IMG/VR virus record: IMGVR_UViG_3300034025_000033
Coordinates: 1 to 61,919 of that record
Direction: 5' to 3' (one strand)
Source: a virus
Length of the DNA stretch: 61,919 nt
Part shown: in pieces, positions 11,318 to 14,969 of the stretch
Numbering within the stretch: the first letter of the stretch is position 1
Layout: each line of letters begins with the position of its first letter
Program-made: the position numbers and the translations under genes
The notes under the pieces: generated by a model
Database searches by the model: none
What the model saw: only the letters and a program-made list of their open reading frames with translations
What the model was told of the DNA's origin: nothing

Positions 11318-11520
11318 TGTGGCACCTCTTCACCCAGCGCGCGGGCAGTGGCTTCGTTCACGGCGCGGTTGATTGCGCCGATGATGGCCTGTGCGTGCTC
11401 GGGCCAGAAGGAGATGTACTGGATCGCCTCGCCTGGAACATTACAGTCCTGCTCGATGACGATTTCGCCCGAGTCGTTTGTGTGAATTTCGATCATTTCT
11501 TGTGCCCTCACCGCGATCAT
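11314..11520 (-). CDS. Hypothetical protein (68 aa)
   Basis: ATG at 11520 in ATGA overlap with the antirepressor stop. Acidic small protein. Confidence 0.55.
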   Translation of the reverse strand: MIAVRAQEMIEIHTNDSGEIVIEQDCNVPGEAIQYISFWPEHAQAIIGAINRAVNEATARALGEEVPQ

Positions 11521-12203
11521 ACTTGTCCCTTGATTTGATGTTTTGCCCACTCGCCCGCGATCCAGGTGATGCCCTTGGGGGTGAAGCGGGCAGAGTTGTA
11601 AGCATGGCCGCTGACTTCTGCCGTGCCGGCACGTACCTCAAAGCGCCCGGCGTCGAGCTGGTCGGCATACGGCACCCACTCGCCGCCCAGCTTGTACATG
11701 ATTTTGCGTTCTTCCAGGAAGGCGCGGAAATCTCCCTCTTTCGCCTTGAGCAGCTTGCAGACCTGACGGAATCCTTTCGATCCGGTCGAGTCCACGTAAC
11801 GGTCGACGAAGTCCAGCGCAGGCCTGGCCGCCTCCAGTTCAGCCGCCAGCCGGATACGCTCGCGTTCGGACTGCACGCCCATTTCCAGAAGTTGAAGAGT
11901 CGATAACTCTAGGTTATGGGACGTTTTTGCCTCCAACTCTTGCCAGCGGTCGACCAGGCGCGCAGTGAACTCGGGCGACAGTTGCGCGACGACGACATAG
12001 GAGTCTCGTTTGCACAAACGATACTCCCCTGCTGGACGCCCCAAAGTATCGAGGTATTCCCCCAATGGGGGATCACTGATGAGGCCGCTTTTTACCAAAC
12101 GCTCGATGCTTTGTTTGACCTTGTCGTGCCGCGATTCGACCAGATCGGCGATTTCTCGGCTGGTCATGGTTTTTTCTGTCTGATGTATTGCCATTTGATT
12201 CAT
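11517..12203 (-). CDS. Antirepressor: Rha N-terminal domain plus KilAC/ANT C-terminal domain (228 aa)
   Basis: MTSREIADLVESRHDKVKQSIERL is Rha-like. FRQVCKLLKAKEGDFRAFLEERKIMYKLGGEWVPYADQLDAGRFEV is KilAC-like. AGGAG sits 5 nt before the ATG at 12203. Confidence 0.85.
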   Translation of the reverse strand: MNQMAIHQTEKTMTSREIADLVESRHDKVKQSIERLVKSGLISDPPLGEYLDTLGRPAGEYRLCKRDSYVVVAQLSPEFTARLVDRWQELEAKTSHNLELSTLQLLEMGVQSERERIRLAAELEAARPALDFVDRYVDSTGSKGFRQVCKLLKAKEGDFRAFLEERKIMYKLGGEWVPYADQLDAGRFEVRAGTAEVSGHAYNSARFTPKGITWIAGEWAKHQIKGQV

Positions 12204-12476
12204 CACGACTCCTATCTGCCAATAAGTTAATGTTTCAGGTGAATCAAGCAAGTACGTATTCCTAAGGGGCTTGAGCGAGACTCAGACTTAGCCCGAGCCT
12301 TCACATAAACGTTCCTGTGGGGAATCGCTATGACCCGTCAGCCTTGCGCATGTGAGGTGCTAACTTCGACGCCTCATTGGGTGCTTCCCATGCTTTGCCC
12401 ACAGTACCCAGTTCCCCCGATGCCCCTGGTGCTTGCGTTCCCAGGCAGTCGGTAGTTGATGCGGCAGAAATGACAA

Positions 12477-12580
12477 AAGCCCTATAAGTCTCGGCGCTTT
12501 TCATCGTGGCAGCGATCTGGGATTCAACCCAAGAAAAACGCCGAAGCTTATAGGGCTTCGGTATCTGTCAATGCTGCCAC
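12477..12580 (-). promoter_or_regulatory. Structured RNA element with mutually exclusive folds (candidate attenuator or immunity RNA)
   Basis: Helix GTGGCAGC/GCTGCCAC (12580..12573 with 12513..12506) encloses a terminator hairpin. A 20-bp long-range helix (12558..12539 with 12496..12477) competes for the same nucleotides and ends in CUUUUG. Confidence 0.45.
12534..12561 (-). terminator. Intrinsic terminator inside the ORF-free region
   Basis: Minus strand CCGAAGC-CCTATAA-GCTTCGG followed by CGTTTTTCTT. Confidence 0.7.
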
Positions 12581-12621
12581 ATCAACGGGTGAATAGTAAA
12601 GAAGTTTCCAAAGTTGCGCCA

Positions 12622-12755
12622 TGTCTATTTCTGTCTATAACTATTCTGATTTATATCAAAAAGCTATAAATCAAAAGTTGGGACAAAAATCGGGCAGATT
12701 GTGGACAAATTTCGGACGACCGTTCAACGAGGAGTCAACGGTCGGTCAACGGTCG
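12622..12755. repeat. AT-rich tract with phased short repeats (iteron-like; origin or operator-array candidate)
   Basis: TGTCTAT x2 (12622, 12632). TCAAAA(A)G x2. GGACAAAAATCGG / GGACAAATTTCGG 22 bp apart (12681, 12703). Perfect tandem GTCAACGGTCG x2 (12734..12755) plus an inverted CGACCGTT (12717..12724). Confidence 0.6.
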
Positions 12756-12763
12756 TTGAAATG

Positions 12764-12785
12764 AAAAAGCCCCATCAAAGGGGCT
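12764..12785 (-). terminator. Intrinsic terminator after the Ref-like gene
   Basis: Minus strand AGCCCC-tttgat-GGGGCT followed by TTTTCATTTC, 35 nt after the stop at 12821. Confidence 0.75.
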
Positions 12786-12787
12786 TA

Positions 12788-12829
12788 GAAGGGTATCGAA
12801 AGGGTTAGCGAAGGGTTCCGCTACCCTTC
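12788..12829. repeat. GAAGGGT motif array
   Basis: GAAGGGT (12788), GAAAGGGT (12798), GAAGGGT (12810) and an inverted ACCCTTC (12823) at 10-13-bp spacing. The last pair forms a 7-bp palindrome across the Ref-like stop codon. Confidence 0.6.
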
Positions 12830-13303
12830 TGGCGGCGAGAAATCCAGCAGCGCATACAGCTCGGCCAGCATCTGCTGCTCGGTGCCGTACATCTGGCCGA
12901 ATATCTTCTTGGCGCCGTGCAGGCTGACGCGCTCCAGCGGGTCGGTGTCGTCCGGCTGGTGGTGCGGGCCGCACAGGGGCAGCACGAGGAAATGCGCGCC
13001 CGGCTTGGTCCTGCCGTCGACGTGGTGCAGGCTGATGTGGCGGTTCTCGCGCCCGTCCTTCGTGCACGCCATGCACGGCACCTGGCCGGCCCGGTCCATG
13101 AAGGCGCGTTCTGCCGCCGTCGGCGCGCGGCCCTTCAAGCCGCGGCTGCGCTTTTTTGGCGCGCGCTGCTTGACCTCGGCCACTGGTGCGGCTTTCGGCG
13201 TGGCCGCGCGCTTAATCGGCGTTCTGGCCAGCGTGGCGGTGCCGCGCGCCATGGGCGAGCGCTTCAAGCCATTGGTGCCGGGCTGGATCGGCGACCTTTT
13301 CAT
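12821..13303 (-). CDS. Ref-type (P1 recombination enhancement function / DUF968-like) HNH nuclease (160 aa)
   Basis: A basic N-terminus is followed by ERAFMDRAGQVPCMAC...HHVDG...PLCGPHH, the Cys/His arrangement I associate with RecA-dependent Ref nucleases. Confidence 0.7.
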   Translation of the reverse strand: MKRSPIQPGTNGLKRSPMARGTATLARTPIKRAATPKAAPVAEVKQRAPKKRSRGLKGRAPTAAERAFMDRAGQVPCMACTKDGRENRHISLHHVDGRTKPGAHFLVLPLCGPHHQPDDTDPLERVSLHGAKKIFGQMYGTEQQMLAELYALLDFSPPEG

Positions 13304-13854: not shown

Positions 13855-14226
13855 TTACGGTCGCATTCTGATTGCGCGGGCACGGCCGTGGCCCAGTGTG
13901 ATGTAGCCCTTGCGCTCCAGCGCCAGCAGATGGTCCTGTGCGGCGTTGGCCGATCTGAAACCGAGTCCGTCCGCGATTTCGCGGTGAGTCGGTGCCATGG
14001 CGTTGTCGCGGATGTACCGGAACAGGAAAGCGAAGACTTCCCGCTGCCGGTCCGTCAGCGCCGGGCGTTTGTCGCACGCCTGTGCTGGCGCCGGATCAGC
14101 AGCAGTATCGGCGATGAAATCGAGAATGGCGGCCTTCCTCTGTTCCCGCTCATCACCTTCGGGCGCCATGGAAAAGCGCCGTACCAGAAGCCAGAACTCG
14201 GGTCGATCAAGTTTCTGCTTTATCAT
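13855..14226 (-). CDS. LexA N-terminal DNA-binding-domain-only protein (123 aa)
   Basis: ALTDRQREVFAFLFRYIRDNAMAPTHREIADGLGFRSANAAQDHLLALERKGYITLGHGRARAIRM parallels E. coli LexA residues ~3-68. The ORF stops at the linker, with no cleavage site and no S24 peptidase domain. It has a 55-aa novel N-terminal extension. Confidence 0.8.
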   Translation of the reverse strand: MIKQKLDRPEFWLLVRRFSMAPEGDEREQRKAAILDFIADTAADPAPAQACDKRPALTDRQREVFAFLFRYIRDNAMAPTHREIADGLGFRSANAAQDHLLALERKGYITLGHGRARAIRMRP

Positions 14227-14969
14227 GCTGCCTCCAGCAGGTTCAGTTGTGCAGGCAGGTTGCCTGCATTGGGATTTCCCCACTGTGCCGCCATGGCATC
14301 GGCGATGCCATGAAAGGTGCGGCTGCGATCTCGCCAGCGCTCCGGGCCGGGCGATGCCAGATGCACGGCCGACCATTTCTTGTGCTCTGGCGTGCCCGGC
14401 TTTGGCGGTGTCAGGCGGTTCGTCGCCACCAGCGGCGGCAGGCGGTCCAGCTCAAATCCGGTTGCCTTGAACGCCTCTTCACCGAACCACCACGGCTGCA
14501 CGATCTGGCGCGGACCCGGCTGAATCAGTTCGCGTGCATGGCAGTGCATGATCGGGTTTTCGATCGCCTTGCCCTTCTTTGCCCTGACCTTTTTGAACAG
14601 CTTGTAGAACTCGGCGCCTTGGCGCAGCTCGTCCCACATGAACGCCAGCCGCTGGTCGCGCGACATGCTGGCATATGCAGCCACCACCGCGGCCGGGTAT
14701 TGCCACGGTGCCAGCTTTTTCGGCGGCTCGATCAGCCAGCGCGCGCCGGCATTGGTCAGACGGGTGCAGGTCGGGTGGGCGATGATGATGTCCCAGTAGT
14801 CATCGATCAGCACATCGCGCACGTCGCCTTTGTAGTGCGGCCCCGGTCTTTCAGTATCGAGCAGGTCGCACGACATGGCCCGGCATCCAGCCCTGATAAA
14901 AGCGTCGCGCCCGATGCCGGACGATTCGCAGGCGATCAGGACGTTCAGGGGCATCTTGTTGTTGTCCAT
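14223..14969 (-). CDS. DNA C5-cytosine methyltransferase-like protein (248 aa)
   Basis: LIACESSGIGRDAF (motif I-like), AHPTCTRL (PCQ-like catalytic Cys) and IENP (ENV-like). It is short, with no obvious target-recognition domain. Confidence 0.6.
   Translation of the reverse strand: MDNNKMPLNVLIACESSGIGRDAFIRAGCRAMSCDLLDTERPGPHYKGDVRDVLIDDYWDIIIAHPTCTRLTNAGARWLIEPPKKLAPWQYPAAVVAAYASMSRDQRLAFMWDELRQGAEFYKLFKKVRAKKGKAIENPIMHCHARELIQPGPRQIVQPWWFGEEAFKATGFELDRLPPLVATNRLTPPKPGTPEHKKWSAVHLASPGPERWRDRSRTFHGIADAMAAQWGNPNAGNLPAQLNLLEAA

Follow-up and report, generated by a model that had tools for sequence, protein, structure and literature searches.

A widespread phage leader-RNA family absent from Rfam, found upstream of a Betaproteobacteria-1 RNA and an antirepressor gene, and its possible role as a conditional promoter-proximal terminator

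The intergenic region and its elements

The 61,919-nucleotide (nt) viral record IMGVR_UViG_3300034025_000033 of IMG/VR, a metagenomic contig that was analyzed over its whole length and is referred to here as the window, contains a noncoding region between a gene for a Ref-like RecA-dependent nuclease and a gene for an antirepressor (ant) with Rha and KilAC domains. Within this region lies a leader RNA element (positions 12586 to 12455) that is a member of a widespread phage leader-RNA family absent from Rfam 15, and it is followed by a Betaproteobacteria-1 (B-1) RNA. Both flanking genes had been named correctly in a preliminary description of the locus, and its statement that the region between them is free of open reading frames (ORFs) holds as well: no ORF of 60 amino acids (aa) or more lies inside it, and three intrude at the edges only, the first in an alternative frame of ref (12735-13076), the second a form of ant extended to a TTG start (up to 12251), and the third on the strand opposite ant (11916-12230). 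All elements are read on the minus strand of the window; in the order of transcription, they are as follows.

12821-13303, minus: gene for the Ref-like RecA-dependent nuclease (PF16786)
12593-12598, minus: candidate -10 hexamer TACTAT, ending 6 nt before H1, as in the family
12567-12586, minus: H1, a 5' hairpin GUUGAUG / CAUUGAC of 7 bp (two G-U) with the loop UGGCAG (predicted fold; alignment to the covariance model R1 described below)
12580-12573, minus: X, GUGGCAGC, within H1
12534-12561, minus: t1, a terminator-like hairpin CCGAAGC-CCUAUAA-GCUUCGG followed by CG-UUUUU, within arm A (terminator scan)
12533-12558, minus: arm A, the 5' strand of the long putative terminator hairpin (26-nt inverted repeat, minimum-free-energy [MFE] structure, family stem)
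12503-12532, minus: apical region, with UUGGG-UUGAAU-CCCAG (12532-12517) and the hairpin AUCG-CUGCCA-CGAU, which displays X' (MFE)
12513-12506, minus: X', GCUGCCAC, the exact 8-nt complement of X
12477-12502, minus: arm A', the 3' strand of the long hairpin (inverted repeat, MFE, R1 alignment)
12468-12478, minus: U-rich tract UUUUGUCAUUU after the long hairpin, overlapping its last two pairs (aligns to the R1 U-run)
12455-12467, minus: X'', CUGCCGCAUCAAC (inverted repeat, MFE of the full leader, family permutation test)
12333-12453, minus: B-1 RNA, Rfam RF02932 (cmscan)
12258-12332, minus: B-1 3' extension, GCGAUUCC..UGAAGGC..hairpin..UCGCUCAAGCC.. (by-eye comparison of ~40 loci)
12201-12213, minus: start of ant, with the Shine-Dalgarno sequence AGGAG (12213-12209) and ATG (12203-12201) (sequence, Pfam Rha and KilAC)
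11517-12203, minus: ant (Pfam domains Rha and KilAC)

The preliminary description had proposed that this region encodes an RNA with two mutually exclusive folds, and the helices it drew are present. The helix of GTGGCAGC (12580-12573) with GCTGCCAC (12513-12506) is an exact 8-nt inverted repeat, the terminator CCGAAGC-CCTATAA-GCTTCGG plus CGTTTTTC at 12561-12534 was called by a terminator scan, and the small GGG/CCC hairpin is found at 12532-12517. Fold 2, in which AAGCCCTATAAGCTTCGGCG (12558-12539) pairs with 12496-12477, has two mismatches at the DNA level, equivalent to one mismatch and one G-U pair in RNA, and zero matches of this kind are expected by chance. The inverted repeat is larger than had been noted, with inner arms of 26 nt (12558-12533 / 12502-12477; 88%) and outer arms of 21 nt (12586-12566 / 12475-12455; 86%), which together form a single hairpin of 132 nt (12586-12455) that includes fold 2. 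A 181-nt segment folds at -67.9 kcal/mol, compared with -42.9 ± 4.0 kcal/mol for shuffled sequences (z = -6.2; 0/200), and the whole 617-nt region has a folding z score of -8.1. The last segment of the leader, X'', is complementary to GUUGAUGUGGCAG, that is, to the H1 5' strand and loop, over 13 bp with one G-U. The resulting helix of X'' with X and the H1 5' strand, here referred to as P0, encloses the long hairpin, and X'' ends 1 nt before B-1. Both the long hairpin and t1 (7 bp, five of them G-C, then U5) have the makeup of an intrinsic terminator, a G+C-rich hairpin followed by a U tract.

A leader family with three covarying pairings

The leader family has members in over 200 viral contigs. 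A comparison with Rfam gave no match to the leader at an E value of ≤1, and a full-text search of the literature for its conserved motifs returned only unrelated primer matches. The family has a common layout of a promoter, H1 with loop X, a long terminator-type hairpin carrying X', a U-run, X'', and a downstream structured RNA. H1 takes the form GUUGnn / loop X / nnCAAC and is followed by a short A-rich linker, while the stem A:A' is 16 to 26 bp long and topped by a small apical hairpin, with X' as a 7-nt bulge on the 3' side that is complementary to X. The U-run ranges from U5 to U9, and X'', which complements the H1 5' strand and part of X, ends in CAAC and adjoins B-1. A long hairpin and U-run lie within ~20 nt before B-1 in 74 of 105 unique listed loci.

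Thirty-four compact members were aligned with MAFFT as a plain alignment that was not fitted to structure. In this alignment, 92.6% of the cells are paired, compared with 72.8% for shuffles and 39 to 48% for slid controls, and 27 of the 33 pairs change on both sides. The long stem is 96 to 98% paired, with compensatory changes at 17 of its 18 pairs; the H1 helix is 94% paired; and in the X:X' helix, which is of the pseudoknot type, pairing reaches 91% and compensatory changes are seen in 5 of the 6 pairs. The two partners of X were also compared by own-locus versus cross-locus pairing in a permutation test, which replaced per-locus RNAduplex z scores (too noisy). Own-locus scores exceeded cross-locus scores for X:X' (390.5 versus 287 ± 7.7) and for X:X'' (353 versus 291 ± 7.7), with 0/20,000 permutations in each case, and the X:X' helix is represented by 27 distinct sequence pairs. 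The window itself has an 8-bp X:X' helix (GUGGCAGC/GCUGCCAC) that is equaled in score by only 1 of 58 cross-locus pairings, and its X:X'' pairing has the best score in the compared set. Both helices of the preliminary description, fold 1 (X:X') and the long hairpin (A:A'), are therefore conserved with covariation at related phage loci. Since G-U pairs are frequent in the stems, the structure is in the RNA of the minus strand. As a separate observation, a noncanonical internal loop, C-A opposite G-Y, is conserved in the middle of the stem (alignment A2, columns 48-49 / 97-98) and could be a protein-binding or tertiary-contact site.

Membership of the window was examined with a covariance model, R1, made from 34 relatives with the window left out. 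R1 finds the window leader at 12591-12451 (minus strand) over its full length, as the only match in 134 kb, with 32.7 bits and an E value of ~1e-5, R1 E values being only roughly calibrated. It also finds 45 of 100 listed B-1 loci with 55 to 113 bits, on the B-1 strand and adjoining the B-1 pattern, and scores on the opposite strand are at most 25 bits. With 32.7 bits against the typical 55 to 113, the window is therefore a divergent but formal member of the family. Promoter geometry is likewise a family feature: a sigma-70 match of at least 9/12 with a -10 element ending 6 to 7 nt before H1 is present in 61 of 122 unique listed leaders, compared with 1 of 122 shuffles, and on this basis the leader RNA is taken to start at H1.

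B-1 RNA and the genomic settings of the leader

No known element had been recognized at this locus in the preliminary description. This no longer stands for 12453-12333 (minus strand), where an Rfam cmscan matched RF02932 above its gathering score (61 bits versus 49.4; E = 8e-9 over the whole window) from model position 1 to 120 of 120. B-1 is only the 3' third of the finding in the window. For this RNA, no function is given in the main text of Weinberg et al. 2017 (PMC5737381). Its core pattern is present in at least 119 viral contigs, and 20 of 20 loci tested are B-1 members, with 57 to 107 bits. By eye, conservation at ~40 loci among those numbered L039 to L153 continues for ~75 nt past the Rfam model, in the form ..GUGGCUCCG-AAAAGCA-..UGAAGGC-hairpin-GUCCACC-AAAAAGCA; the Rfam model contains neither this 3' extension nor the upstream leader. 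Within the extension, there are also two short direct repeats, which vary in concert from locus to locus, and a GUGG/CCAC pairing that cuts across a hairpin. A 58-aa ORF overlapping B-1 was considered and rejected, as it has no Shine-Dalgarno sequence and is not conserved.

A terminator after B-1 is absent in 77 of 81 listed loci, a T-run being present in only 4 of 81. Because no terminator follows the B-1 extension, the RNA would run on into ant or the corresponding downstream genes. This suggests that B-1 is a 5' leader rather than a free small RNA (sRNA), the type assigned to it in Rfam. B-1 is also found without the leader. In L051, L137, L139, L142, and L148, it stands directly after the stop codon of a Toprim/primase-like gene (..DWNDxH..), and in L145 and L046, it lies ~20 nt past a consensus promoter, ahead of a primase-helicase gene.

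The leader, in turn, is found without B-1. A leader-specific pattern is present in at least ~120 further viral contigs, and B-1 comes next in only 5 of 109 listed. Otherwise, the leader precedes several different long conserved noncoding stretches (L158 to L272, e.g., L158, L160, L162, L164, L169, and L175), one type of which is that found in L001 (2740-2990). These stretches begin, for example, with CUCGCAGGC.AUGCGGUACGUCGGUGG.., CCGUACUCCACACGACAGCAAG.., CCGUCAGGGCGCGUUAGC.., or CCGGGGCUUCA..CAGAUAAACGUG.., and none of the types is in Rfam. That they are distant relatives of B-1 is not supported, as the Rfam B-1 model gave no match at an E value of ≤5; they are candidate new RNA families. 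The genes downstream are small and varied, and the recognizable ones are early or replication genes encoding a primase-helicase, an O-like initiator, a YqaJ-type exonuclease, and a ParB-like protein. The leader module thus usually heads replication or early operons and is not tied to antirepressors generally. Two leader-carrying contigs also gave matches to other RNAs that narrowly exceeded the respective gathering scores, namely, to a type II hammerhead ribozyme at L192 1104-1163 (38.2 bits) and to an int-alpA RNA at L186 7448-7515 (38 bits).

The same picture emerged when homologues of ant were traced through scans of viral sequences, genomes, and metagenomes, by protein search, and by looking up contigs. 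An identical Ant protein was found on a contig of 61,933 nt. The nearest relative, L001/L031, has an Ant protein that is 82% identical and a different upstream gene (YbcO-like). Its module consists of a promoter (TTGCTT-17-AATAAT), a small 5' hairpin with the loop UUGGCA, a long hairpin, and a U-run; the arms of the long hairpin are completely different in sequence, and the apical part has a CUGCCAA partner. At L002, L005, and L016 (Ant 50 to 60% identical), a long hairpin and U7 are present, in L005 ahead of B-1. Among the ant homologues traced, only L001/L031 share the module, and L002, L005, and L016 share the architecture; most of the others are without a leader. Homologues with 67 to 72% identity have no such leader, and an ant homologue is present in only 1 of ~119 listed B-1 loci. 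The switch dedicated to the antirepressor that the preliminary description had envisaged is not borne out by these data, and the link with ant is therefore incidental. Among GenBank phages, there is no DNA match to the 751-bp region 12150-12900; in viral contigs, the exact arm pattern has no match, and the terminator-block pattern matched only the L001 contig.

A small ORF was observed between the structured RNA and ant, with a stop codon overlapping the ant start (AUGGAACUGA), at L005 2798-2990, with equivalents in L002 and L016. By analogy with orf45-anrP of Gifsy-1, this overlap suggests translational coupling.

Upstream of the leader promoter, two further features of the window were recorded.

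12762-12786, minus: upstream intrinsic terminator AAGCCCC-TTTGAT-GGGGCTT then TTTTT, after the Ref-like gene (terminator scan)
12644-12756, no strand: array of protein-site-like repeats in a low-GC stretch (repeat search)

The upstream terminator is homologous to the terminator of L001, as a conserved block in the alignment of the window with L001, and marks the upstream boundary of the module. Between it and the ref stop codon, ACCCTT occurs three times (window 12787-12820), and these repeats are partly common to L001 (2510-2535) despite different upstream genes. The array contains CGACCGTTGAC in two copies plus one inverted copy (12716-12756), CCGAwwTTTGTCC in two copies at 22-nt spacing (12681-12715), and the palindrome TGATTTATA-N9-TATAAATCA (12644-12676). 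With a GC content of 0.52, compared with ~0.63 elsewhere, it belongs to a 115-nt low-GC insert that falls in a gap in L001, the closest relative, on alignment. It is located just upstream of the leader promoter and close to replication genes; possible roles are those of a set of operators or an origin of replication. Farther along, the genes after ant encode an O-like initiator fragment, a DUF6475 protein, a methyltransferase, and RusA. On the other side, a 173-aa ORF (window 13855-14376, minus strand) has a LexA DNA-binding domain at residues 106 to 168 but lacks the peptidase (S24) domain that would go with it; since ~150 nt of this ORF overlap the methyltransferase ORF upstream, its true start is probably internal, and it may encode a noncleavable LexA-like regulator.

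Termination, competing readings, and known systems

We consider it about an even chance (0.5) that the module is a composite minus-strand 5' leader with a conditional promoter-proximal terminator, giving a short and a read-through isoform. The RNA would start from the -10 element at 12598-12593, and its first 132 nt (12586-12455) would be the leader-family element, in which the long near-perfect hairpin A:A' and its U tract would serve as an intrinsic terminator. B-1, its 3' extension, and ant would follow without a further promoter or terminator, and transcripts would be split between a short RNA of ~115 nt and a read-through RNA with B-1 and the downstream genes. X would pair with X' first (fold 1) and would have to be displaced before the lower terminator stem could close, which would make X:X' a kinetic competitor of terminator closure. 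Once the stem had closed, transcription would end; upon read-through, X'' would capture X and the H1 5' strand to form P0 beside B-1. In the short isoform, the X loop would stay free and might also work in trans by pairing with X' or X'' on other RNA molecules, in the manner of Gifsy-1 IsrK and P4 CI RNA. What the data show is the elements themselves, membership in the family, covariation of the three pairings, the strand, and the geometry of the promoter; that transcription ends here, in which direction control runs, and that the RNA works in trans are inferred.

Predicted MFE structures of nested transcripts are consistent with such a succession. A window transcript ending at 12534 folds into H1 and t1 (-18.9 kcal/mol), and one ending at 12503, just before A', folds into X:X' enclosing t1 and the GGG hairpin, that is, fold 1 (-34.3 kcal/mol). 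At 12470, H1 and the long hairpin are predicted (-57.2 kcal/mol; -43.6 kcal/mol at best with X:X' forced), and at 12451, P0 and the long hairpin (-75.6 kcal/mol). The same predicted succession is seen in relatives, with X:X' in 25/34, A:A' in 34/34, and P0 in 28/34. Of the two mutually exclusive folds in the preliminary description, both helices are real, covary, and replace each other in these nested predictions. What has to be revised is the scheme itself, as the folds are stages of one pathway that has a third partner, X''.

Several points weigh against a conditional terminator of this kind. In predicted energy, the fold with the terminator lies far below the one with X:X' (-57 versus -44 kcal/mol), and antitermination would therefore need kinetics or the help of a factor. 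X:X' sequesters neither strand of the terminator, which is unusual for an attenuator, and a rough estimate suggests that it might coexist with A:A' as a loop-bulge pseudoknot in compact relatives, in which case there would be no switch; in the window, this arrangement would be strained. In the window, the -35 element is weak (ATGGCG or TGGCGC), the sigma-70 score is only 7/12, and a promoter scan called no promoter at the leader. The U tract UUUUGUCAUUU is weaker than the U5 to U9 of most relatives, and no counterpart of t1 was seen by eye in the arms of the relatives inspected (L001, L060, and others). The rough calibration of the R1 E values belongs here too, and R1 misses L001, L002, and L005, whose architecture looks the same by eye.

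An alternative that is possible, if rather unlikely, is that termination at the long hairpin is largely constitutive and that the short terminated RNA is a functional trans-acting riboregulator, whose X loop or X' bulge pairs with X'' or X of read-through or nascent transcripts from the same promoter and alters their folding, stability, or termination or the translation of downstream genes, much as IsrK of Gifsy-1 does with isrK-orf45-anrP or CI RNA of P4 with seqA/seqC. The three mutually complementary segments, with X in an exposed 5' hairpin loop and X'' only in the read-through part, are as such a regulator would have them, the promoters and terminators of the family are strong, and there is a precedent upstream of an antirepressor (PMC4825925). 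P4 controls its replication genes by the same logic, and the family mostly heads replication or early genes. However, any pairing made in trans could equally form in cis, with local concentration in its favor, and neither the IsrK nor the C4 covariance model gave a match at an E value of ≤10. It is of note that trans action overlaps in part with the conditional terminator and does not exclude it. We regard as unlikely that the element is a static structured domain without a switch, in which X:X' is a tertiary loop-bulge or loop-loop contact in one compact fold and which serves as a constitutive terminator or insulator or as a 5' stabilizer or processing site (e.g., for RNase III) before the downstream RNA. 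In compact relatives, X' is a 7-nt 3'-side bulge atop a 16- to 21-bp stem, and by a rough length estimate, H1 (5 bp), the kissing helix (7 bp), and a ~10-nt linker could flank this stem. Near-perfect stems of 16 to 26 bp have the length required of candidate RNase III substrates, and the element is a module found ahead of several downstream RNAs that are unrelated to each other. However, X'' is conserved and competes with H1 and X' for exactly the same bases, which is difficult to account for unless the pairings alternate, and a strong constitutive terminator before replication genes that have no other promoter would silence them.

The model of the preliminary description, in which t1 is the regulated terminator and fold 2 the antiterminator of a riboswitch or attenuator dedicated to the antirepressor, now appears very improbable. 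While t1 does look like a terminator and fold 2 uses all of its nucleotides, t1 and its U-run are fully transcribed before the 3' arm of fold 2 exists, and fold 2 therefore cannot antiterminate t1 or preempt it. In addition, t1 is unseen in the relatives inspected, close ant homologues have no leader, and ant is found at 1 of ~119 listed loci. No known riboswitch family matches at an E value of ≤10, and the conserved positions are mostly in helices and the one CA/GY internal loop, although a ligand of a new kind is conceivable. The comparison with c4-type immunity RNAs does not extend to membership: there is no C4 or IsrK match in 12100-12900 at an E value of ≤10, no P22 sar model having been tested as such. 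That a c4-type element would be recognizable is indicated by L029, in which a genuine C4 RNA (RF01695; 73 bits) is found at 576-659, upstream of an icd-like small ORF and a distant homologue of the window ant. As an observation in its own right, this order of C4, icd-like ORF, and ant represents an immI arrangement of the P1 type, here on a metagenomic contig. A tRNA-like reading, based on an acceptor-like 8-bp helix and the T-arm-like UGGGUUGAAUCCCA, was rejected, as ARAGORN found 0 genes in the window and there is no Rfam tRNA match; UGGGUUGAAUCCCA is not conserved in L001.

Least probable of all, and hardly to be expected, is a feature of the DNA (a protein site, cruciform, or origin element) or a leader peptide. 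The palindrome does span 132 bp beside iteron-like repeats and replication genes, but its stems tolerate many G-U pairs, which are A-C mismatches on the other strand. R1 scores are 55 to 113 bits on one strand and at most 25 on the other, whole arms covary without conservation of their sequence, and conservation that is symmetric between the strands is not seen in the sequences. As for a leader peptide, the 24-codon ORF pointed out previously is present at 12622-12548 and stops in the t1 loop. It was rejected in this role, since it has no Shine-Dalgarno sequence, as already noted in the preliminary description, its ATG is upstream of the inferred transcription start, and it has no counterpart in L001 or other relatives.

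Among documented systems, IsrK of Gifsy-1 appears to be the closest analogue of the conditional terminator proposed here, by a resemblance in logic rather than family membership. In Gifsy-1, transcription past the IsrK terminator yields an isrK-orf45-anrP mRNA, anrP being an antirepressor gene; a local hairpin and a long-range helix form in alternation, and the long form is a target of the short one (PMC4825925). IsrK has been linked to seqA/CI/seqC of P4, which gates replication genes by premature termination (PMC4825925); the P4 genes so gated (primase) match the usual downstream context of the leader. As with IsrK, the leader, which is known here from sequence, would be a promoter-proximal small RNA with a terminator that is partly read through into an antirepressor mRNA; a long-range helix joining its 5' RNA to a segment farther downstream would compete with a local hairpin, and the short isoform could pair with the long one. 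The small ORFs overlapping the ant start in L002, L005, and L016 recall orf45/anrP. Unlike IsrK, which gave no covariance-model match, the leader has an X'' that precedes a structured noncoding RNA and not an ORF or ribosome-binding site, its internal partner X' has no IsrK counterpart, and its family is mostly found before replication genes. With P4 immunity (seqA, CI RNA/seqB, and seqC), it shares a sense-strand operon leader RNA, repeated complementary segments, and presumed control by premature termination; the segment order differs, being one X and then two complements in the leader and complement, seqB, and complement in P4.

The c4 RNA of P1/P7 and the CA RNA of N15 are also sense-strand phage operon leader RNAs with complementary segments and control by premature termination. 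Unlike C4 (RF01695), the window element shows no tRNA-like features that ARAGORN could detect. In the plasmids pT181 and pIP501, attenuation driven by antisense RNA operates in replication control. The leader resembles them in having a putative promoter-proximal terminator before replication or early genes, competing RNA pairings, and 7-nt loop contacts; no countertranscript promoter is evident for the leader, however, and all of its partners are on one strand. The put antiterminator RNAs of HK022 sit just downstream of early phage promoters. They differ from the leader in that put acts before the terminators that it suppresses, and they have no known equivalent of the three-way pairing.

More tentatively, the leader might be an undescribed sense-strand switch, in which X has three exclusive partners (its own hairpin, X', and X'') that set the ratio of short to read-through RNA. 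Trans pairing by the short RNA could then make early or replication expression dependent on template dosage, as a phage counterpart of plasmid copy number control, in a module that is placed before several unrelated unnamed RNAs, including B-1. We consider this extended proposal possible, with the odds against it.

In summary, here we place the orphan B-1 family in a context, that of a phage early-operon 5' leader which follows a promoter, a primase gene, or the new leader, and we describe an abundant RNA class outside Rfam, with three covarying pairings and many distinct versions of X:X'. The leader also flags further long conserved noncoding regions in other phages. Finally, it points to a possible gating of delayed-early or replication genes in uncultivated, probably freshwater betaproteobacterial phages that have no recognizable N- or Q-type system.

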